Virus record (IMG/VR): IMGVR_UViG_3300043812_000016
Span: 32,001 to 96,000 of that record
Reading direction: 5' to 3' (one strand)
Length of the DNA stretch: 64,000 bases
Origin: a virus
Lineage: Duplodnaviria; Caudoviricetes
A program made the position numbers and the translations under genes. The notes under the pieces were generated by a model. It saw only the letters and a list, made by a program, of their open reading frames with translations, had not been told where the DNA came from and ran no database searches. Shown here one piece after another: positions 21,154-60,768 of this stretch (the first letter of the stretch is position 1; each line of letters begins with the position of its first letter).

Positions 21154-24100
21154 GTGGATGGTAAACAATTAACAAAGTTAGCTAGGTCGATGTTTAACTT
21201 AGGACCTAAAGATCCTATTACAGTTGATCAGCTAAATTATGTGTTGGGTATGAGTAGACCTAGTAACTATTTATTACAACATCACACGATTAATGGAAAG
21301 CCATTAACCTTTAATGTACCAGATCATGATACTACTAAGGCTTTAAGTCATAGGCCATGGCAAAAAATGGTTATTGACGATGTTAATTATCCAGATCTGT
21401 GCGTAATTAAAAGCCGACAGTTGGGTTTTTCGGAAGTTGGAATTGAGCAGATGATTTATTGGCTTGATATACATAGTGCTGATAAACCTAATGGTTTGTA
21501 TACATTCCCTAGATTAAGTGGGGCTTTTGACAGTAATGTTAATTGAAAAACATCCCCTAAACGGGCAAAGCTTAAAAAGCTGGTAAGAAAGACTAAGCTC
21601 TTATAGAGTAGTGTTAACCCCGTCCTAATAAAATGGCTAACGACTATATAGGGAATATCCTAAAGGGATAAAGATATAGTCTTACAATGTAATAAATTAC
21701 GTTTACATTTGTAAACTTATCGGCAACTTAATGACTTCTATAAGCAACGTATTTTGCCAGAGTTTGAGTCTGGTTATTATAAGTCTTTAATTAAAGATCC
21801 TAAGACAACTACAATGAATGGTATGAAGATTAGAGACTCTAATTTAATTTTCCGTACTAGTTCACAAGGTAGTTCTATGGAAGGTCTAAAAATTGATCGG
21901 CTTGCATTGGATATAATATTTGTTCTGGTTAACAGTAATGTTAATTGAAAAATATCCCCTAAACGGGCTTACCGTAATAAGGTGGTAAGAGAAGCTAAAC
22001 CTTATTTACGAAATAAGGCAGGCTAATCCCGTACCAAGTTAAAACAGGTCTAACGACTATATAGGGAATATCCTAGTAGGATAAAGATATAGTCTGTTTT
22101 ATAATTAAAATTATATATTAAATTGGAATATGATCGCTTAAATCCTCTAGCTGAGCAGTCAGCAATCAGTCTATGCAGTCCTCACCTTATAAGATTGTAA
22201 GTAGATGGTCAACGCCTAAATATGTGGGCGCTAAACTTAGTAATAAGTTTTGAATAAACTTTGTTAAACGGGTATAGCCAAATAACTGAAGTAAATAGGC
22301 TAGTAAGAAAGGCTAAGTCCAGAAGTGGATAGAGTTGATCAACCGTGCTAAATAGAAAAGCCTAACGATTAGGTGTTTACTTACTATATTAGAATATGGT
22401 ATAAAAATAATAGAAAGTGAGTAAACATATGCCTAGAAAAATAACAGATAAGATATTTAAGCAACGAGTATATGATCAAGTAGGTAATGAATATATAGCT
22501 TTAACTCCCTATGTTAAGGGGTATGAAAAAGTTAAGTTTAAGCATACTAAGTGTAACAACACTTTTTGGATGACTCCTAATCATTTTTTAGGGGATCATA
22601 GACGATGCTCCTATTGTAATCATGGTAATGCAAAGTCACCGGAGGAATTTGCAAAAGAATTTTGTAAGGTTGCAGGAAAACATTACATTCAGCTAACTGC
22701 TTATCATCGTTCACATGAAAAAATTGAAGTCATTCATGTTGATTGTGGACATAAATATTGGGTTGACCCTGATTCTTTTGTAAGTGGGGGTAGGAGATGC
22801 CCTAAGTGCTATGGAAATAATAGAAAGACAATTGAGCAGTTTAGAGAAGAGGTTAATTTATTAACTCATGGTGAATACGTTTGTATTTCCGAAAGCTATG
22901 TAAATAATAGAACAAATGTTGAGATTAAACATTTAGTATGTGGCAATAAGTACAAGGTTACACCCCATGATTTTATAGAGGGGAATAGATGTCCTTATTG
23001 CAAGCAATCAAAAGGGGAGAAGTTAGTTCAGAAAATTCTGGATAAACATAAGATACCTTATGAAATACAAAAGCGCTTCGAGTGGTGCAGGCGTGAAAAT
23101 GGTAGCTATTTACCTTTTGACTTTTATCTACCTAACTATAGCTTATGTATTGAGTACGATGGTATTCAGCATTTTAAGAGTGTTAAATACTTTGGGGGAC
23201 GGAAGAAGTTGCTAAGTCAACAAAATAGAGATAATTTCAAAAACAGGTGTTGCTTGAATAAAGAAATATCAGTTATTAGAGTTCCTTATAATCTATCTCC
23301 AGATTTTGTAGAAGTTAAATTAATGTCTGTAATAAATTCTAGGCAAAAAGCAAAGGATCGTATAGCTAAAATTATACGATTATGATATAATCTAATCTAT
23401 TTAGAAATAAATAGTTAATATAATTGACAGTACAAAATTATGGGATACATCGTCTGTTTTTACAATCAGACCAGAGACGTTGGGTACACACTTGCCCACA
23501 TTGCGGTTTTGAACAGGTTTTAGACTATGAGAAGAATGTTAAGCAGGTTAATAAAGATGGTATAGATACAGACGCTAGGGTTGTACAGCCGGGTACTTTT
23601 CAGTTTGTTTGTCAGAAATGCGGAAAATTGCTTGATCGGTGGTATGATGCCAAGTGGGTTGTAACTCGCCCCGGTTCGGGACGTAGACATGGTTATGCAA
23701 TTTCGCAAATGGATAGATTATGTGTCCCCTTTAATAGTGATATTAATTGAAATAAACTTACTAAACGGGTAAAGCTAAATAATAATTACAATAAAGAATA
23801 GGCTAGTAAGAAAGACTAAGTCCTAGTAATTAAGGATATAGTTGACCAACCGTACTAAATCTGATCTATAATAGATAGAGAAGTAAAAGTCTAACGACTA
23901 AACTTCTAATATTAATTTATTAGATAAGAGTGATATTTTATTATGGGTAGACTAAAGACTAATGAAGAATTTTTAAATGATTTGAATAATAAATACGGTA
24001 ATGAATATATACCTTTGTCTCCCTATATAAGGAATAATATAAAAATCCCCTTTTTACATTATGATTGTTGTACTATTGAGTATCATACTCCTAGAAGAAT

Positions 24101-26848
24101 TTTACAGGGTCATGGATGTAAAAAGTGTGGGAATATAAGTAGTGGATGTCAAAGAGAGAAGTCTAATAATAATTTTTTAGAGGAATTAAAATTATTAGGG
24201 TTAGACGACTTTAAGTTTAATGAGTCTTATCGTGGTAGAACTAAAAAGATTAGTTGTACACATCTTAAATGTGGTTTCACTTGGAAAGTATCTCCAGCAA
24301 GCATACTTCTTAATCGAGGATGTCCTAAATGTAGTTTAAATAGGATTAAGTCTTATAATTCATTATCATTTAATGAAGTTATGCGTAGACTACCCAATAA
24401 CATAAAGCTACTTGATCATTATCAAGTTGGAAATTTAAATAAGCACTATCATTTATTATGTACAACTTGTGGGTATGGTAGTAATTATGAATGGTGTCCT
24501 AACTTATTAGATGTAGTCGATAAGGGGTCAGGATGTCCTAATTGTTATTTAAATCATCGAAAGTCTAAAGGAGAATCTATAATTCTTACTATACTGAGGG
24601 ATTTAGGTTTTATCGAGGGTAAGGATTTTATTTATGGATATGTATTATCAAATAGGTTACATTTAGACTTTTATTTTCCTAAAGGCAAAATAGCTATTGA
24701 ATATGATGGTATTCAGCATTATGAACCTAGGGATAAGTTCGGAGGACTACCTGCTTTTAGAAAACAAGTAATTAGAGATAATAATAAAAATGATATTGTT
24801 AGAGAATTAGGAATTGATTTACTACGTATATCATATAAATACAATACCTATAATAAAATATATGGTGTATTAAAACCATTTATCATGTAATGTAAGTTAG
24901 CTATTAACTAGCTAAAGAGATAGTCTTATGTATAATTAAAGTTATACAAATAAAATAATTGGCAGTATGGATCACGGCGGACAAACTGAAGGAAGAGGAG
25001 ATGAGAGCGCCTTCCAAGCAGTTCTTCTATAATTACTCGCTTGGAATGCCTTATGAAGATAAAGGTGCAACCTTTAGAGATGAAGATATTTTAACTCATA
25101 TTGATAGTAGTTATAATAAGCCAGATGATAGAAGTAATTACAAGTACGTATCTATCGGTGTTGATTGGGGTAGATGTTTGCCCCTTTTTATAGGAATATA
25201 AAATAAAAGAACTGTGTTAAACGGGTAAAGCTAAATAACTGAATTGAATAGGCTAGTAAGAAAGACTAAGTCCAGAAGTGGATAGAGTTGACCAACCGTT
25301 CTAAAATAAATGACTAACGATTAAATAGGAGATGATACTAATGTCTAAGTTAACTAATTTGGACTTTATTGAACGTAGCAAGAAAATGGGAGTATTTGAC
25401 GAATATATCTTTTTAGACAAATATGTTAACAATAAAACTCCAATTAGAGCTATTCATAAAGTTTGTGGTAATGAGGTTAGTATTATCCCCCGAGAGTGGT
25501 TTAGAGGAAAGAACAGGTGTAGGAAATGCACTATTAATAAAAAGTGGAGAAAACCTGAAATATCTATTGAGAATGAAAAAGCTAAGATCAATAGTTGTTT
25601 GGGCAACAACTATAAGTTAATAGATGTGAGTTTTTTAACAAAGCATGGTAAAGGATCATATTATGCTAAGATATTAAATTTATCTACGAAAGAATATAAA
25701 ACTGTTAGGGCGGATCATATTACTTCGGATAAACGCTACTTGTCATCCACACACATTAAATCAGTTGGAGAGCTTAGAATTAAATCATACTTAGAGAGAT
25801 GTGGTATTGACTATGTATCACCTAAGACTTTTGAAGGTCTTAAAGATAAGCAGAAGTTACATTATGACTTTTACTTACCTAATAATAGAGTATTGATAGA
25901 ATATCAAGGCGAACAACACTTTAATGCCGACAAACAAATAAGTTGTAATCCTCATGCTTATGAATTACAGGTTAAGCATGATGAAATGAAAAGATCCTAT
26001 GCTAAAAATAATAACTATACATTATATGAAATACCATATACGATTTATAGTTATTCTGAAATATACAGATACATGAATAAATTACTTAATTAAACACACA
26101 GTGCCCAATAAGAGGGCAAAGATATAATCTATGCCCAGCAGAAATGCTGAGGTTAAGTTAAAGGAACACGTACATTCAATTGTTACTTTAGGTATGAGAG
26201 GTAATGGTCAAATTGACCTTATGGATCTTACTCAAATTCCTAGATCAACTGGTGTAGAACATATTGAAGAAGACCTAAATCTAGTCATGAGAAAGATAAA
26301 TCAATATCAGCCTGATATTATTTGTCCCGATTTAGGATTCTCTGGTAATTATGTGCAGAAAATGATGGCTTATTATGGTATTCAGCGTGTATATGGGGTT
26401 GTTGTTAGATCAGCGAAGACTAACGGTGACTTTTAATGCGCATTTTAATGATACTGATTCTACTGTTACTCTGGATAAGCTTACTCAAAATGTTATTCTT
26501 ATGGGTAACATTAAACGGGGTGATATCCATTTCTGGTCTGGTTCCCAGAACGATCCAGAAGTTAGAAAGCTTATTATTCATGGTAAAAATGTTGTTATTC
26601 GTACTGATGAAAAAGAAAATCAGCAGACACATTTAATTGAGTATAGTAAGGTTATTTTACGTAAGGGTCCAGATCATTACTTCCAGTCGATGGTATATGC
26701 TATGGCTGGGCTTGATAAGTTAATGAAAGAGGACGCAATGAAGCGTAGAAAGTCTACACAGATTGATTATCTTGATAATGACATCTTTACTCCAGAACAG
26801 ACGGATATACAACGAGAATATGAAATTAAGAACGAAACGGAGTTCTAA
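21154..26848 (+). CDS. terL: Terminase large subunit in six exons: 21154-21510, 21715-21912, 22126-22217, 23427-23714, 24962-25171, 26164-26848 (about 609 aa)
   Basis: Joined exons give KSRQLGFSE, YTFP|TY, LD|EYD, WSTP|TV, QMD|AVW, GVDWG|EH and GPDHY; needs one-base fixes in exons 3 and 6. Confidence 0.93.
21511..21714 (+). mobile_element. Group I intron terL-I1 (no ORF)
   Basis: IGS TAAGT-GGGG pairs with both exons; P7 GACTA/TAGTC; last base A in this assembly. Confidence 0.88.
21913..22125 (+). mobile_element. Group I intron terL-I2 (no ORF)
   Basis: Upstream exon ends in T, intron ends in G; CTAACGACTA and AAGATATAGTC core. Confidence 0.9.
22218..23426 (+). mobile_element. Group I intron terL-I3 with endonuclease ORF
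   Basis: IGS TGT-GGGCG; P7 GATTA/TAATC; terminal G. Confidence 0.9.
22417..23385 (+). CDS. Intron-encoded putative homing endonuclease (Zn repeats plus PD-(D/E)XK/DUF559-like domain)
   Basis: HxxC...RCPxC repeats; LPFDFY...IEYDGIQH. Confidence 0.85.
   Translation: MSKHMPRKITDKIFKQRVYDQVGNEYIALTPYVKGYEKVKFKHTKCNNTFWMTPNHFLGDHRRCSYCNHGNAKSPEEFAKEFCKVAGKHYIQLTAYHRSHEKIEVIHVDCGHKYWVDPDSFVSGGRRCPKCYGNNRKTIEQFREEVNLLTHGEYVCISESYVNNRTNVEIKHLVCGNKYKVTPHDFIEGNRCPYCKQSKGEKLVQKILDKHKIPYEIQKRFEWCRRENGSYLPFDFYLPNYSLCIEYDGIQHFKSVKYFGGRKKLLSQQNRDNFKNRCCLNKEISVIRVPYNLSPDFVEVKLMSVINSRQKAKDRIAKIIRL
23715..24961 (+). mobile_element. Group I intron terL-I4 with endonuclease ORF
   Basis: IGS TGT-GTCC; P7 GACTA/TAGTC; terminal G. 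Confidence 0.9.
23943..24890 (+). CDS. Intron-encoded putative homing endonuclease
   Basis: Zn repeats; LHLDFY...IEYDGIQH. Confidence 0.85.
   Translation: MGRLKTNEEFLNDLNNKYGNEYIPLSPYIRNNIKIPFLHYDCCTIEYHTPRRILQGHGCKKCGNISSGCQREKSNNNFLEELKLLGLDDFKFNESYRGRTKKISCTHLKCGFTWKVSPASILLNRGCPKCSLNRIKSYNSLSFNEVMRRLPNNIKLLDHYQVGNLNKHYHLLCTTCGYGSNYEWCPNLLDVVDKGSGCPNCYLNHRKSKGESIILTILRDLGFIEGKDFIYGYVLSNRLHLDFYFPKGKIAIEYDGIQHYEPRDKFGGLPAFRKQVIRDNNKNDIVRELGIDLLRISYKYNTYNKIYGVLKPFIM
25172..26163 (+). mobile_element. Group I intron terL-I5 with endonuclease ORF
   Basis: IGS TGTTT-GCCCC; P3 CTGTGT/ACACAG; P7 GATTA/TAATC; terminal G. Confidence 0.9.
25332..26093 (+). CDS. Intron-encoded putative homing endonuclease
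   Basis: HKVCG...RCRKC; LHYDFY...IEYQGEQH. Confidence 0.85.
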   Translation: MILMSKLTNLDFIERSKKMGVFDEYIFLDKYVNNKTPIRAIHKVCGNEVSIIPREWFRGKNRCRKCTINKKWRKPEISIENEKAKINSCLGNNYKLIDVSFLTKHGKGSYYAKILNLSTKEYKTVRADHITSDKRYLSSTHIKSVGELRIKSYLERCGIDYVSPKTFEGLKDKQKLHYDFYLPNNRVLIEYQGEQHFNADKQISCNPHAYELQVKHDEMKRSYAKNNNYTLYEIPYTIYSYSEIYRYMNKLLN

Positions 26849-26960
26849 TTAAGTAAAAGACCTCTACTAGCTTTTATACTAGTAGAGGTCTTTTCAGCTA
26901 TATTAAAGGCAGAATTGTAGGTGCTATAATGTATATTTTAAATAAAGGGGTGAAGATTAT

Positions 26961-28533
26961 ATGAGTTTTTTAGATCGCTGGTTTGGCTCTGAGAATGCTG
27001 ATGATTACATTGATCTTGAACAGTTGAATAAGCAAGAAATTGCCAAAAGCTTTAGAGCTGGTAGATCAGACCAGCGGGTTGATAATGCTTATATTCAAAT
27101 TGGTGCAGATAGTCATAATCGCCAAAACCCCCAGCGAGAAAAGATTAACCAAGATTATTATTTAAGAAAGAAAGATCAACTAAGAGCTTATGCAGATGAC
27201 CTATTAGTTCAAGCAATTATTAGAACTAGAACTAACCAGATCTTAAACTTTGCTACTCCTGCCCGTTTATCTAGTGACGATAATGGGTTTAGAGTTGTTA
27301 AAAAGGGTAAGCAACTTAGTGATATGACAACACATGAAAAAAATGTTGCTAAGAAGTTAGAGGACTTTATTTTCTATACTGGTAAGGACCAATTAGACTG
27401 GCGTGATGATTTCCCAACTTTCTTGGCTAAGATTATTTATGACTTTTATGTGTTTGACCAAGTTAATATTGAACGGGTTTATGAAAGTAAAAGATCTAAT
27501 AAATTAAACCATTTTAACCATGTAGACGCTTCTACTGTTCTAATTGATAAATACCCGACTAGTATTGATAAGCCTAAATCCTTTGTACAGGTAGTTAATA
27601 GTAATGCTAGTGATAAAGATAGAATTTATTTTAATAGTAAAGAGCTAGTATTTTCTACTTATTGGAGCCAAGATAAGCCTTATTCTGGTGGGTATGGTTT
27701 TTCGCCTGTTGAAGCAGGTATGGAACATATTCAGTACCATATTAATGTTGAGCAGTTTAATGCTCGTTTCTTTAGCCAAGGTGGTATGACTCGTGGTCTG
27801 TTGCTTTTAGATCCAGGGTGATGGTTCTGGTACTTCTCAGTCTAACTTAGACGCATTAAGACGTAATTTAACTCCAGCACAAGGAATCAACGGTTCGTGG
27901 AAAATTCCAATTATTCAAGCACATGATGCAAAGTACGTCAACATGACACAATCCTCTAAGGATATGGAATTTATTAATTTCCTTAATTATCTTAATAATA
28001 TTATTTGTGCTGATTTTAATATCCAACCCGATGAGATTAACTTTCCTAATCGAGGAGGAGCTAATGGTAAGACTGGTGGTAGTACCTTAAATGAGGGTAA
28101 TACTACTAGAACTAAAATAGACGCTTCTCGTAATAATGGGTTAGAACCTGTTATGAAGTACATTGAACGTCTAATGACTGATAAGATTTTACGATACGTT
28201 GACTCTGATTATATGTTTGTCTTTAGTCCAAGCGATCAAGGTAAAGAGAAACAACTACAAGATGAGTTAGCATTAAAGCTAAAAAATGGGATGACGATTT
28301 CAGAGGCGAGAGCGCTTATGCATTTACCTAAGCTTGACTTACCAGATATTCCGGGTAACTCGGACAACCTTCTGCAATTCTATGCTGTACAATCAAAATT
28401 AACAGATCCTAATGGTAATATGAGTCAACAAAAAGAAAGCTTAACTAGTCCTACTAAAGATGTTCCTAGTGCTATTAAAGAAAACACTAGCAATACTGAT
28501 AATGATAATGGTAGTTTAGATGATAAATCTTAA
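26961..28533 (+). CDS. Portal protein (frameshift near 27818)
   Basis: AIIRTRTNQ, FDQVNIE, GYGFSPVE, RFFSQGG, KDMEF, PDEINFPNRGG; position after terL. Confidence 0.9.
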
Positions 28534-28547
28534 AATGGGGTGTTATA

Positions 28548-29624
28548 TTGCGATGGACCACGAAAACATTTATTAAAGAATTAAATAAGCGTTATCCTAA
28601 TAAATTTATCGTGTTAGGTAAATATAATAGTATTCATACAAAAATAAGAGTTAGATGTTGTAAATGTCAGTACGAGTATGATGCTGAACCTAATTCAATA
28701 TTAAATCGTGGAATTAATTGTCCTAATTGTTCAAATATAGCTATCCACAAAAAGCAACGCTGGACTACGAGTTACTTTAAGAAAAAAGTAAAAGAGTTAG
28801 CAGGAGATTCTTATGTTGTGATAGGGTCTTATGTAGATAGTCAAACAAAAATTGATATGAAGCATTTAACCTGTGGTCATGTCTTTAGCATAAAACCTAA
28901 TGCTTTTATTCAAGGTCATAGATGTTTATATTGTTTTATGAATAAAAAGAAAACAACTAAACAATTCAAGCAAGAAATAAATGATCTTGTTGGAGATGAC
29001 TTTAACTTAATAGGTGAATATGATGGATGTATGAATTACGTTAAATTGAAGCATAATAAATGTGGTAATATTTTTAGTATAACCCCTAATAATTTTTTAG
29101 GAGGTTCTCGTTGTCCGTATTGTACTAAACTTGGTTGTTCTAATGGAGAGCAATTAATTAAATATTATTTAGACGATAGAGGTATTAATTATAAATACGG
29201 TTACTTAATTCCAGACTTAGCAAATACGCGAAATCTTCATTTTGATTTTTGGTTGGCTGATTTAAATATTGCTATAGAGTATGACGGTATCCAACATTTT
29301 AAACCTATTGAATATTTTGGGGGAGTAGATGCATTCCATAGTCAACAAATACGAGATAGATTAAAAGATAACTATTGTAAAAATAATAATATTAAATTAA
29401 TTCGTATTCCATATACTATGGATACTAAGAATAAAGTTAGAGATATTTTGTCTAAGAATATTCAAGATAAGATGAATCCAGAGGCTAATGTAGAGCAACA
29501 ACACCAAAATGATTACAAGCCGGGACACGAACAATCATTAGATAAGAAACCAGAGGCTAAAGAAGATTCTAATAAGCAAGATCTTAAGAGTCCAGAGGAG
29601 ACTAATGTAGGTAATACAGATTAG
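28548..29624 (+). CDS. Free-standing putative homing endonuclease with a portal-like acidic tail
   Basis: Zn repeats; LHFDFW...IEYDGIQH; extra ~54-aa C-terminal tail. Confidence 0.85.
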   Translation: MRWTTKTFIKELNKRYPNKFIVLGKYNSIHTKIRVRCCKCQYEYDAEPNSILNRGINCPNCSNIAIHKKQRWTTSYFKKKVKELAGDSYVVIGSYVDSQTKIDMKHLTCGHVFSIKPNAFIQGHRCLYCFMNKKKTTKQFKQEINDLVGDDFNLIGEYDGCMNYVKLKHNKCGNIFSITPNNFLGGSRCPYCTKLGCSNGEQLIKYYLDDRGINYKYGYLIPDLANTRNLHFDFWLADLNIAIEYDGIQHFKPIEYFGGVDAFHSQQIRDRLKDNYCKNNNIKLIRIPYTMDTKNKVRDILSKNIQDKMNPEANVEQQHQNDYKPGHEQSLDKKPEAKEDSNKQDLKSPEETNVGNTD

Positions 29625-29691
29625 CTAGTTTCCTATATTATTAAACAGAAAAGTTTATGTATTCTAAGTAGACGGGTGGTGAGATCTAAAG

Positions 29692-30603
29692 TTGAAAAAG
29701 AATTTTGATGTATTCTTACCAATTGATAAAGTAGAGAAGTCTGGTGAAGGTGACGAAGCTACTTATACAATTTCTGGGATGGCCTCCACATCAGATAAAG
29801 ACCTACAAGGGGAGACGATAGACCCGCAAGGTATAAATGCTGACTATCTACTAAGCGATGGTTGGGTTGATTTTGAGCATGATCGTGATCAAGTAATTGG
29901 AGTACCAACAGAAAATACATACGTAGACTCTAAAGGTTTGTTCCTTGAGGCTAAGCTTTTCAAGAATATGCCACAGGTACAAGATATTATTAAGCTTTAC
30001 CATAATATTAAAGATAATCATATTGATCGACAACTTGGCTTTTCGATTGAGGGTAATGTTTTAGAACGGGACGCTAGTGATGATTCTATTATTAGACAAG
30101 TTCAAATTACTGGTGTAGCGGTAACTAAGAACCCAGCTAATACTCATGCTACTTGGGAATTGGTTTCAAAGTCTATTTTTGGTTTAGATAATGAGGAACC
30201 TGTTGAAGAGGCAGATACTACAGATTCTAAGCCTATGTTAAGTATGACTGTAAAATTAGATAAGACAAATAAAGCTCTAACTGCTGGTCATGGAATTACT
30301 CCTAGTACCCAGAATGATGGTGGAGCCTTTAGAACAGAAGCTCTTTCTGGTCAATTGGTTAGTTTAGCTGAAAATATGAAGCAGGCTCGTAAGATTGGGT
30401 TAAGACCAGTTGCTAATTCAGTAGCTGATATTTTAGCTCATAAGGACTCTGGGGACGATGTAATGATTTTATTCTTACAATTGTTCGAAGGTCTTTCTTA
30501 TAATGATTCACAAGCTGTGGTTCATGCAATTAATACTAATAACCTAACTACTAGTCGATTGGAAAGAATTTTAAGTGGTGCAGATGGTGTCACTGATGAT
30601 TAA
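29692..30603 (+). CDS. Prohead protease
   Basis: GMASTSDKDLQGE, DFEH, LGFSIEG, GVAVTKNPAN. Confidence 0.9.
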   Translation: MKKNFDVFLPIDKVEKSGEGDEATYTISGMASTSDKDLQGETIDPQGINADYLLSDGWVDFEHDRDQVIGVPTENTYVDSKGLFLEAKLFKNMPQVQDIIKLYHNIKDNHIDRQLGFSIEGNVLERDASDDSIIRQVQITGVAVTKNPANTHATWELVSKSIFGLDNEEPVEEADTTDSKPMLSMTVKLDKTNKALTAGHGITPSTQNDGGAFRTEALSGQLVSLAENMKQARKIGLRPVANSVADILAHKDSGDDVMILFLQLFEGLSYNDSQAVVHAINTNNLTTSRLERILSGADGVTDD

Positions 30604-30615
30604 GGAGGATTAATT

Positions 30616-31680
30616 TTGCCTGATAAATTAAAGAATGCTATGGACGCTATTGATAAAGCTCGTAAGTCATTAGTGTCTACAGAAGACACAGTAGAAAAGT
30701 CTGCTGAAGTTGAAAAGACTGATCCAGATGTAAAAGCACAGGAAGAAGCAACTAAGTCTACTGAGGAAGCTGAAAAGAACGTTAACCAAGCTACTATTTC
30801 AGATGATAATGAAAAAGTAACTAAGGACGTTGACGATGATGATGTAGAAGAATCTGCTGATAAAAAGGATAAGTCAACTAAGTCTGTTGATGAAGCTGAA
30901 AAATCAGAAGACGAACCTGCTGTAGAAAAGAATACAGACGCTAAGACTGAAGAAGCTAAGGCTAAGCAACATAAAGAATTAACTAATGTTGATGATCCCA
31001 AGGGTCATGAAGAAGCTTCTAAGTCATTTGATACTAATGCAGTAATTGACGCTTTAACTAAGTCTGTTGATACTATGGCTGAAATGCAAAAGTCTTACAA
31101 GGAATTAGCAGAAGCTTCTATGGAAATTGCTAAGTCATTCTTGGCTAAGCAAGCACCTATTGAAGATCAAGCTGAAAAGTCAGTAGAAAAGTCTCAAGAT
31201 AAAAAGTGTGGAGACGATGATGATGTAGAAGAATCTGCTGATAAAAAGTGTAAGACAGCTAAGTCTGATGATGACCAAGAACCAGATACAGATGATGAAG
31301 CTAAAGACGACAAGGAAGACAAAGCTAAGAAGTCTGTAGAAGATCCTGCTGATAATGCTGATGAAGCTGAAAAATCAGTGGAGGAACCAGCAGAAGAAGA
31401 TAAGGCTGAAAAGTCAATCCCTACTGGTAAGGCAGTTGCTACGGGTGCAGAAGAAGCTAAGGACGATACAGTTGCTAAGTCTGTAGAAACTCAAGAAGAC
31501 GGTGTTACTAAGGAAGCCTTAGAAAACGTAATCGCCAAGTCATTGCTTGGTTTTGATGGTGTACAAAGCGGTGTTAACTTGGAACGCAAGCACGCCTTAA
31601 AGAGTCTCTTAGCTGATACTCGAGAACTTAAAGGTACTACAGTTCCCGATAGTTTTATTGAAAGATATAACGAAATTTAG
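30616..31680 (+). CDS. Acidic scaffold-like protein
   Basis: Between protease and capsid genes; D/E/K-rich with many KS motifs and an internal 36-nt duplication. Confidence 0.7.
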   Translation: MPDKLKNAMDAIDKARKSLVSTEDTVEKSAEVEKTDPDVKAQEEATKSTEEAEKNVNQATISDDNEKVTKDVDDDDVEESADKKDKSTKSVDEAEKSEDEPAVEKNTDAKTEEAKAKQHKELTNVDDPKGHEEASKSFDTNAVIDALTKSVDTMAEMQKSYKELAEASMEIAKSFLAKQAPIEDQAEKSVEKSQDKKCGDDDDVEESADKKCKTAKSDDDQEPDTDDEAKDDKEDKAKKSVEDPADNADEAEKSVEEPAEEDKAEKSIPTGKAVATGAEEAKDDTVAKSVETQEDGVTKEALENVIAKSLLGFDGVQSGVNLERKHALKSLLADTRELKGTTVPDSFIERYNEI

Positions 31681-31755
31681 TTTTTAATTAAAAAACCATA
31701 CTTATGTCTATATTAGATATAGACAACGAATGGTAAAATGGAAAGGATGAAAATT

Positions 31756-33258
31756 TTGCCAGAATTACTAAAAGAAAAGACTGTAGTAAAGTCTGTTTTT
31801 AAACAAGATCAAGAAGACAAGTTAAACAAGTCTTTAAATAATGATAAGGCAGACCGGGTTGTTAAAGCCTTTACTGCTGGTACTGGTATTACGCCAGAAA
31901 CACAACCAGATGGTGCCGCTTACCGTATGGAAGCATTAGATCCTACTCTTAACATCTCTACTTATGGAGACGAAGATTACACAATCTACAAGGATCTTGC
32001 TAAGGTACCTGTTAACCAAACTGTTCAAAAGTATACTGTTTACTACTCACATGGTCGTACAGGACACCAAATGTTCCAACCAGAAATTGCCAAGCTTCGT
32101 TCTAACGAACCTCATGCACGGCAAAAGACTGTTAACGTTAAGTTCCTTGTAGACACTAAGGGTAGTTCATTTGCAATGCAATGGGCTAATACAACTGTTG
32201 ATACCAACATCTTGTTGGAAATCTCAGCTATTAACAACATTGCTAAGGCTATTGAATATGCTACTTTCTATGGTGACTCAGACTTGGCTCAACAAGACGG
32301 TGAAGGTCTTGAATTTGACGGTCTTGAAAAGCTTATGGACGAACACAACAAGATTGATATGCGTGGTTCTTCCCTTACACCACAAGCACTTAACTTAGCC
32401 GCTGTTAAGATTGCTCAAGGTTATGGTACACCAACTGATGCTTATATGCCGGTAGGTATTAAGGCTGATTTCGTTAACGAACACCTTGGTGCACAACGTA
32501 TCTTACAACCTAACTCAGCTGGTGCTGGTATGCAAGTTGGTCTTGATATTCAACGGTTCATTTCAGCTCGTGGTAATATTGCTCTTCATGGTTCAACTAT
32601 TATGGACCTTGATAAGAAGCTTGATATGGACGGTGCTGTAGACCAAGACGCTCCAGTAGCTCCAACTGTTAAGGCAGAAGTTGTTACTGGTGACAATGGT
32701 ATGTTTATGGCAGACGACAAGAAGGACAAAGATGATAAGGTTGTTCTTAACAAGTCTGTTGGTGTTGACTTAACATACCGTGTAGTCGCCGTAGGTCAAC
32801 AAGACTCATTACCATCTGATGAAGTTAAGGTTAAAGTTACGAACACTACTGATACTGTTAAGATTACTGCAACTCTTAACCGGATGGTTGCTAACATTCC
32901 TGATTATGTTGCAATTTACCGTAAGTCAGATGTTCCGGGCGATGACCAATTCTGGCTTGTAGGTCGTGTAGCTATCTCTAAGATGGCTGGTGATGGTACT
33001 ATTGTATTCGAAGATAACAACGAAACTATTCCGGGTACTGGTGACGTATTCATTATTGAAAACCGTCCAACTACATTACGTTATCTCGAATTTGCACCAA
33101 TCACTAAATTCCCGCTCGCAATTACCACTACTGCTACTAACGTTGCATATTTGTGGTTTGGGAGTTTAGCATTAATCTTCCCTAAGCGGGTAGCGCTACT
33201 CCACAACACATTATATAACTCAACAGCTAAGTCAATTCCTTCCAGTGTAATTGATTAG
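31756..33258 (+). CDS. Major capsid protein precursor
   Basis: KAFTAGTGITPETQ, HGRTGH, IAKAIEYATFYGDSDL, GLEFDGL; RBS favours the TTG at 31756. Confidence 0.95.
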   Translation: MPELLKEKTVVKSVFKQDQEDKLNKSLNNDKADRVVKAFTAGTGITPETQPDGAAYRMEALDPTLNISTYGDEDYTIYKDLAKVPVNQTVQKYTVYYSHGRTGHQMFQPEIAKLRSNEPHARQKTVNVKFLVDTKGSSFAMQWANTTVDTNILLEISAINNIAKAIEYATFYGDSDLAQQDGEGLEFDGLEKLMDEHNKIDMRGSSLTPQALNLAAVKIAQGYGTPTDAYMPVGIKADFVNEHLGAQRILQPNSAGAGMQVGLDIQRFISARGNIALHGSTIMDLDKKLDMDGAVDQDAPVAPTVKAEVVTGDNGMFMADDKKDKDDKVVLNKSVGVDLTYRVVAVGQQDSLPSDEVKVKVTNTTDTVKITATLNRMVANIPDYVAIYRKSDVPGDDQFWLVGRVAISKMAGDGTIVFEDNNETIPGTGDVFIIENRPTTLRYLEFAPITKFPLAITTTATNVAYLWFGSLALIFPKRVALLHNTLYNSTAKSIPSSVID

Positions 33259-60642: not shown

Positions 60643-60768
60643 TTGACAACCATGGGTGTATGCTTTATACTAATAATGTTCCTTAATTCAGTAAGGAAAT
60701 TGTTTCAAACTTTTATCTGAATTCTTTGTTTGTTTTTCTTTGGCAGGGTTTGTCCCTGTTTTTTTTTA
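60643..60768 (+). ncRNA. Promoter-sRNA-terminator unit G
   Basis: TTGACA-N17-TATACT; 60719-60734 complementary to 5713-5728; terminator 60742-60767. Confidence 0.65.

Follow-up and report, generated by a model that had tools for sequence, protein, structure and literature searches.

A free-standing homing-endonuclease cassette has, in our reading, entered the portal gene of a Herelleviridae-type phage, supplied that gene with a substitute end, and left the original end fused to the endonuclease open reading frame (ORF). The phage, placed by its gene content and best matches, is IMG/VR virus record IMGVR_UViG_3300043812_000016, and the stretch analyzed here (the window) comprises 64,000 nucleotides (nt), bases 32001 to 96000 of a single 143,482-bp contig. 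The cassette occupies window positions 28372-29459 and lies 59 codons before the end of the portal gene; we assign this reading a probability of about 85%. Comparison with relatives establishes the anatomy of the locus, the polarity of the insertion, its presence or absence among near-identical phages, its transfer between backbones, and purifying selection. Relatives' contigs are designated L0xx, and the proteins and protein clusters used in the comparisons are designated P0xxx. The locus contains the following features.

26961-28371, plus strand: body of the portal gene, native backbone part (Pfam Phage_portal matches both of its pieces; 95 to 100% identity per 100 nt to L003)
28372-28533, plus strand: substitute portal tail from the cassette, 53 codons (LQFYAVQSKLTDPNGN...DDKS) and a TAA stop codon at 28531-28533, in frame with the portal body
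28534-28547, plus strand: 14-nt spacer with a ribosome-binding site (GGGGTG) before the endonuclease start, read from the sequence and conserved in L012
28548-29459, plus strand: endonuclease core, 304 codons, TTG start, without a stop codon of its own (Pfam DUF4379/CapR, phrog_559; absent from seven close relatives)
29460-29624, plus strand: displaced original portal tail, 54 codons (IQDKMNPEANVEQQ...NVGNTD) and the old portal stop codon at 29622-29624, near-identical to endonuclease-free portal ends
29692-30603, plus strand: prohead protease gene (Pfam Peptidase_S78), which together with the old tail makes up the right homology flank

The displaced end of the portal gene

The endonuclease ORF (28548-29624) encodes 358 amino acids and belongs to a family with at least eight further copies in the 143-kb genome. 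Whereas complete paralogs end 16 to 32 residues beyond a conserved IRIPY-type motif, except for one joined to a different domain, the window ORF continues for 69 residues beyond it, and PHROG and tblastn family matches stop at about residue 300 to 320. As both the paralogs and the family matches end earlier, the extension is real. This agrees with an earlier reading of the DNA letters (the original prediction), which had noted at 29460-29624 a stretch running past the usual end of the family and lacking a counterpart in the complete paralogs. The same prediction held that insertion of the endonuclease had exchanged the portal C terminus and captured the old one.

Seven close relatives bear directly on that claim: L003 to L008, found by scanning IMG/VR with the C-terminal part of the portal, and L023, from ENA. 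None of the seven has an endonuclease between portal and protease. Their portal is a single ORF of about 529 residues, counted from the start codon, and ends in ...PGNSDNL-IQWLA-IQDKMNPEANVEQQHQNDYKPGHEQ...NVGNTD, the last part of which is the window's endonuclease extension. Aligning 29460-29624 with these endonuclease-free portals thus recovers the captured portal end that had been predicted, with 7 of 162 nt differing between the displaced tail and the portal tail of L003 or L008. For both contigs, nucleotide identity in the longer block that begins there is 98%. The matching portal C termini fall in protein clusters P0121 and P0128.

The junctions can be placed precisely. Alignment to L003 stops at window position 28378 (L003 4436) and restarts at 29459 (L003 4444), with a left flank of 95 to 100% identity per 100 nt and a right block (29459-32975) that is 98.2% identical over 3517 nt. 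Read at the codon level, the shared sequence ends with AAC CTT (NL) at 28371 and the common ATT CAA GAT (IQD) restarts at 29460, and the 1088-nt insert at 28372-29459 stands in place of 15 nt (IQWLA) in the empty allele. Because only the empty allele has these 15 nt, it cannot have arisen by deletion in the filled allele. More distant endonuclease-free portals (P0138, P0136, and P0142) share the old tail type, and this, together with the IQWLA codons, identifies the event as an insertion.

Elsewhere in a 5.8-billion-protein database, the displaced-tail sequence is found only in portals or portal fragments, in P0001 (an endonuclease discussed below), and in one probable assembly chimera. P0174, a predicted protein of 215 amino acids from a 2122-nt ENA contig, in which an unrelated N-terminal stretch of 100 residues precedes the last ~115 residues of this portal type, is probably a chimeric assembly. 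The original prediction had also pointed to a likeness between the present portal tail and the endonuclease tail. The identification of the latter as an old portal tail stands through the relatives, but the direct similarity is at chance level: the local BLOSUM62 score between the new and old tails within the window is 35, against 29.9 ± 5.5 for shuffled sequences, and 907 of 5000 shuffles reach that score (z = 0.9), and the comparison was dropped as evidence. It is therefore the relatives, and not any resemblance within the window, that show the endonuclease tail to be the old portal tail.

The tail that the portal now carries is that of another lineage. The second portal ORF (27943-28533) ends in ...NLLQFYAVQSKLTDPNGNMSQQ followed by a tail rich in Ser, Thr, Asn, and Asp, and identity to endonuclease-free relatives collapses over 28372-28533. 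The best matches of this substitute tail (LQFYAVQSKLTDPNGNMSQQKESLTSPTKDVP...) are native portal tails of other lineages (P0124, P0122, and L015; scores of 98 to 106), whereas portals with the old tail type score only 38 to 43. In L017, the phage of P0124, the substitute tail type is native and there is no endonuclease. The same substitute tail is present in three endonuclease-bearing assemblies, L012 to L014. By sequence, then, the present tail is a divergent, foreign portal tail. When either tail alone was used in tblastn searches for named phages, no match was obtained with the low-complexity filter on. The C-terminal segments past the crown of the portal in Staphylococcus phage 812 are charged and molten-globule-like (PMC12886913); given this and the predicted disorder of the tail, the swap is plausibly harmless.

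In the window, an additional A at 27815 (CCAGGGT, versus CCGGGT in six relatives) divides the portal gene into two ORFs, 26961-27821 and 27943-28533. This frameshift is due either to faulty sequencing or to a genuine mutation that inactivates an essential gene. P0172, considered as a second frameshifted portal, was rejected, its split being a scaffold gap of Ns. Another essential gene of this assembly, that of the large terminase, has a single-base frameshift as well: compared with L003, L005, and L012, the window has an additional C at 26430, which puts the C-terminal coding part out of frame and leaves it as ORFs 26131-26436 and 26375-26848.

The cassette in further phages

In the 5.8-billion-protein collection, the endonuclease closest to that of the window is P0001, which is 92% identical, 359 amino acids long, and ends in the same kind of tail. 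It was found in the three Logan assemblies L012 to L014, from three sequencing runs, where the cassette breakpoints relative to empty alleles (4436 and 4444) are identical to those of the window. The portal body of L012 is 95.1% identical to that of L005, compared with 91.5% to that of L003, and its captured tail differs from the L005 portal tail at 1 of 162 nt, while the endonuclease core is 93.6% identical between the window and L012 copies. A three-way table of variants shows the window to be of L003 type up to 28365, of cassette type from 28372, and of L003 type again at 29483, the first informative site 3' of the cassette, which places the backbone switches within 7 to 25 nt of the cassette ends. 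One cassette in two backbones, with exchange points at its ends, is the pattern left by break-initiated gene conversion, and we conclude from these sequences that the cassette has been transferred between backbones.

The captured tails follow the portal tail of the local backbone and not the cassette. As a result, the ratio of nonsynonymous to synonymous substitution rates (dN/dS) in the relics is uninformative on selection after capture. For the endonuclease core, 38 synonymous and 20 nonsynonymous differences between the window and L012 give a dN/dS of 0.10; the enzyme is under purifying selection.

A second before-and-after pair is found among more distant phages. In L015, an endonuclease that is 64% identical to that of the window (P0007) lies directly 3' of the portal, and the portal carries a substitute tail related to the one in the window. 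The L015 endonuclease ends in ...ILSKYI-PDQIDQNDQDTANLDQNKQ, and the portal of endonuclease-free L016 (P0138) ends in ...NTKN-PDQIDQNDQDTDNLDQNKQ; the endonuclease thus terminates in the last 18 residues of the L016 portal. The two contigs are 94% identical on both sides, and 1083 nt in L015 replace 92 nt of L016. Foreign sequence in L015 begins about 110 to 130 nt upstream of the site, which we read as a longer conversion tract. The shorter L015 relic would fit an independent junction; it would also fit if the ancestral junction was shared (ILSK-x | I...) and 102 nt were later lost in frame.

Both pairs bear on the possibility of ordinary mosaic recombination, in which the tail swap and the endonuclease would have arrived by general homologous or illegitimate exchange, with the enzyme a passenger or inactive and the portal not its target. 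Herelleviridae-type genomes are indeed mosaic, with identity to relatives shifting block by block; recombination could be promoted by any of the numerous endonuclease paralogs encoded in the genome; and cleavage by this enzyme is predicted. Exchange of this kind does not, however, readily account for the same breakpoints in two backbones with switches so close to the cassette ends, nor for an orthologous cassette at the same portal position in L015. The strong purifying selection on the endonuclease argues against a passenger, and the insertion falls where homing sites typically lie, in the last conserved coding stretch of the portal. We consider mosaic exchange improbable as an explanation.

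Two further observations concern the assemblies that carry the cassette or parts of it. In L012 (6096-7556), and also in L013 and L014, a different paralogous endonuclease gene (447 amino acids) lies between the old portal stop codon and the protease start, which gives these phages two endonuclease genes in tandem, the second directly 3' of the first cassette. L011, a 2917-nt Logan contig whose endonuclease has its own stop codon and no relic, was considered as a donor and rejected: it corresponds to L012 minus the stretch between the two tandem endonuclease genes, joined across a 32-nt shared stretch, and encodes a hybrid endonuclease of 308 amino acids. Either recombination between the paralogs truly deleted this stretch, or the contig is a 31-mer assembly chimera.

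The enzyme, its spread, and the alternatives

The N-terminal 195 residues of the endonuclease comprise three DUF4379/CapR-type treble-clef zinc-finger repeats. In an AlphaFold model with a mean predicted local distance difference test score (pLDDT) of 83, these three repeats are followed by a compact domain at residues 196 to 310 and by disorder from residue 317, with the first 5 to 12 captured residues modeled as continuing the last helix of the nuclease. The nuclease domain resembles both Vsr (1cw0_A; VIA Z of 11.3, root mean square deviation of 2.8 Å over 107 residues) and I-Bth0305I (3r3p_A; VIA Z of 11.3, 2.9 Å over 96/97 residues); Foldseek assigns a probability of 1.00, yet weak E-values of 0.04 to 0.1, and a sequence search of the endonuclease against PDB chains gave no match. 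Among 64 homologues, D233, H250, and D270 never vary and E201 almost never does; the four stand in the same order as in the EDxHD motif. The catalytic residues of I-Bth0305I are E170, D196, N208, H213, and D222 (PMC3239194); the comparison is one of sequence order, the H-to-D spacing being 20 in the window enzyme and 9 in I-Bth0305I. A NUMOD/helix-turn-helix (HTH) DNA-binding region is absent N-terminal to the nuclease, and since zinc-finger repeats take its place, we class the enzyme among homing endonucleases of the Vsr fold, but with another DNA-binding module, and not as a typical member of the EDxHD family.

At the start of the endonuclease, the window reads ATA TTG (28545-28550) and L012 reads ATG TTG. 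As L015 also starts at TTG, behind GAGGTG, the TTG at 28548 is the probable start in all three copies. Since the core lacks a stop codon of its own, translation reads through the displaced 54 codons to the old portal stop. No promoter or terminator signals above shuffled expectation were detected. A megablast search of 26900-29700 against 50,697 phage records gave no match, and the cassette is thus in no named phage there; no close orthologue of the endonuclease was found in IMG/VR or JGI metagenomes, the close ones occurring only in Logan assemblies.

The captured tail might alternatively be a selected, functional part of the endonuclease, directing it to the portal vertex or to DNA within proheads or serving as a decoy, and not a passive scar. 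In both cassette lineages the endonuclease does stay in the frame of the old portal as far as its stop codon, and the modeled helix would extend into the first captured residues. In-frame reading has, however, a one-in-three chance per event, the relic is predicted to be disordered from residue 317, and its length is not conserved (54 residues in the window and 18 in L015). Paralogs work without such a tail, and the captured tails follow the backbone, as a homology arm would, instead of the cassette. A functional tail is therefore distinctly improbable.

Still less probable is a group I intron carrying the endonuclease, with about 28384-29459 spliced out and the mature portal mRNA keeping the old tail. 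Endonuclease-bearing introns are common in this phage family, the copy of this endonuclease family in phage Twort is listed as intron-encoded in the large terminase gene, and GCT|ATT would make a clean exon junction. No group I intron was matched in Rfam anywhere in the window, despite the endonuclease genes amid terminase pieces, and neither Intron_gpI nor another relevant family appeared at the gathering threshold, nor when the cutoff was relaxed to E ≤ 10. All but 14 nt of the insert are coding, its 5' part is an in-frame portal tail with a stop codon that is homologous to native tails elsewhere, and 15 nt of the empty allele are replaced and not merely interrupted. The endonuclease also has its own ribosome-binding site and a start 14 nt past the portal stop. 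An assembly or sequencing artifact, or chance read-through producing a long ORF, can be dismissed, for despite the two single-base frameshifts (27815 and 26430) and the resemblance of the short contig L011 to a k-mer chimera, the same fusion is found in four independent assemblies (the window and L012 to L014), with a variant in L015, and the junctions are exact to the base.

How a homing cassette could persist in an essential gene can be proposed from its layout. The substitute tail, taken from an earlier host lineage together with its stop codon, keeps the portal complete, and the displaced last 54 portal codons are read as a disordered acidic extension of the endonuclease. In a mixed infection, the enzyme would cut the conserved ...PGNSDNLIQWLA|IQDKM... 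coding stretch of cassette-free portals; in the 3' end of an L003-type portal, the expected cut neighborhood would be ...AACCTTATCCAATGGCTTGCT|ATTCAAGAT.... The insertion site lies in the last conserved portal coding stretch, PGNSDNLIQ[WY]L.IQ.K, which is conserved across the compared portals. Repair would then copy the cassette. To the left of the break, the portal body would provide the homology; to the right, the displaced tail and the protease gene would do so. The filled allele would escape cutting, its site being split and the cassette's left version of it altered at 14 of the 30 positions that surround the junction, as counted from the sequences.

The first junction would go back to a break in a new host that was mended with a donor whose own portal was closely followed by an endonuclease gene. 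The likeliest origin of the right end would be nonhomologous joining, or joining by microhomology, within the last few endonuclease codons. The junction lies 15 residues after the IPY motif of the endonuclease, and the paralogs end 16 to 19 residues beyond that motif.

Several points weigh against a homing cassette in this position. Both cleavage and the target site are predictions from the sequence. The extra A at 27815, if real, breaks the portal whatever the cassette does, and with ATA in the window where L012 has ATG, expression of the endonuclease from TTG is putative. The cassette is also rare: only five cassette-bearing assemblies were found, and the endonuclease cluster has 6 members, compared with 260 in the empty-allele portal cluster P0121. 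Such rarity fits a recent or weak drive.

A more far-reaching version would see the locus as a natural "home-and-rescue" viral gene drive, with an essential target, a cut-resistant rescue, and a displaced end that serves as both homology arm and termination signal for the endonuclease, the layout being selected and general among phage endonuclease genes. In the strongest form of this idea, the captured tail may equip the endonuclease for a role at the portal or on packaged DNA. We regard this extended proposal as unlikely.

Genomic context and comparison with known systems

The nearest named relatives of the phage are Lactobacillus phages LfeInf and Bacchae, with only 45 to 51% amino acid identity in the C-terminal part of the portal. 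Gene order runs from the large terminase pieces through portal, endonuclease, and prohead protease (Peptidase_S78) to an acidic scaffold-like protein and a large ORF, the counterpart of which in Bacchae and LfeInf is annotated as the major capsid protein. Three paralogous endonuclease genes (22414-23385, 23934-24890, and 25329-26093) lie among the short large terminase pieces. A candidate small RNA at 60643-60767 showed no meaningful complementarity to the start of the endonuclease gene (10 nt with one mismatch).

The protease gene has an in-frame TGA (GFV-TGA-VDFEHD) at about 4851-4853 in L005 and about 7761-7763 in L012, where the window and L003 have TGG (Trp). It stands just ahead of the conserved DFEHD motif and is common to three Logan assemblies and one contig from IMG/VR; the codon could be read through or suppressed, or the protease could be split or broken. 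A TnpB-like gene (OrfB_IS605 / Cas12f1-like_TNB) lies between terminase and portal in L012 (1975-3201), as in L013 and L014, and a TnpB-like fragment lies upstream of the terminase gene in L003 (1-648); the window has no TnpB at either place.

If the homing reading holds, an essential structural gene of a phage is open to a selfish endonuclease that uses neither intron nor intein and that spares the phage by bringing the gene end with it. As the cassette would move portal tails between lineages, such endonucleases can shuffle the ends of structural proteins. The available genomes form a natural series: some sites are empty, the cassette fills two backbones, an older cassette has diverged and has a shortened relic, and in one lineage the donor tail is native. 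With this series complete, the target site, conversion tracts, and strength of drive become directly testable. There is also a trap for annotation, in that a C-terminal "extension" of an endonuclease can be a displaced piece of the neighboring gene, and a portal tail can be foreign. No published phage case of this layout was found in full-text literature searches.

Some integrating elements carry a replacement 3' end of the tRNA gene into which they insert. Like the cassette, they make good the damage done by inserting, and a displaced remnant stays behind downstream. Unlike these elements, which use site-specific recombination at an identical core, the cassette would rely on break repair, homologous flanks, and a divergent substitute.

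By fold, the window enzyme matches I-Bth0305I, the prototype of the EDxHD (Vsr-like) homing endonuclease family (PDB 3R3P; Taylor et al. 2011, PMC3239194). The two share the nuclease fold, a phage of a Gram-positive host, and an N-terminal DNA-binding region followed by a C-terminal nuclease. Whereas I-Bth0305I is intron-encoded in recA and has NUMOD/HTH motifs, the window enzyme is free-standing and has three zinc-finger repeats.

In its mode of life, the cassette resembles the seg and mob genes of T4-like phages, among which gene-splitting insertions include mobE in nrdA of Aeh1, mobA with gene 60, and a seg-like gene in gp43 (Edgell et al. 2010, PMC2988022; Crona et al. 2011, PMC3045599). 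Shared features are a free-standing gene with its own translation signals, a position in or beside an essential gene, presence or absence among relatives, and coconversion of flanks. Of the marks of a free-standing homing endonuclease, a nuclease fold, a precise presence/absence site, transfer between backbones, and the lack of an enclosing intron or intein are found here, and site-specific cutting of the cassette-free allele with preferential inheritance is predicted. In Aeh1, the inserted element likewise adds coding sequence that keeps the invaded gene working. The T4-type insertions, however, split the host gene into two polypeptides that reassemble, whereas the window portal stays in one piece through its substitute end, its displaced end being shed into the endonuclease ORF. 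A review of T4-type phages lists split genes (nrdA, gene 39/60, and gp43) and no replacement of a C terminus (PMC2988022).

In layout, the cassette matches the mORF "gene hybrids" of fungal mitochondria, described for atp6, atp9, cox2, and nad3 of Glomus sp. (Beaudet et al. 2013, PMC3630166) and, as cited in that paper, for atp6 of Allomyces macrogynus (Paquin, Laforest & Lang 1994). The order is the same: the body of the host gene, an in-frame foreign C-terminal piece, the endonuclease ORF, and a relic of the native C terminus. The two signatures of such hybrids, an in-frame foreign C-terminal segment upstream and a near-identical native segment downstream, are both present in the phage, with identities of about 96 to 99% for the relic versus about 55% for the inserted end, compared with 91 to 98% versus 64 to 81% in Glomus. 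Some of the fungal inserts also lack a stop codon, with ORFs running into each other. Unlike the mORF hybrids, the present case concerns a phage host and an enzyme with a Vsr-like nuclease and treble-clef zinc-finger repeats, not LAGLIDADG or GIY-YIG. The phage endonuclease also comes with a ribosome-binding site and start of its own; what is fused to it is the displaced relic and not the upstream gene. In addition, the segment replaced in the phage is a fast-evolving disordered tail, so that the substitute has a different protein sequence and is not merely respelled. The portal cassette is a clean, testable example of a layout known from fungal mitochondria and not a new principle; what it adds are the 54-codon relic, a substitute that differs in protein sequence and so makes the portal chimeric, the two before-and-after pairs, and direct evidence of transfer between backbones.

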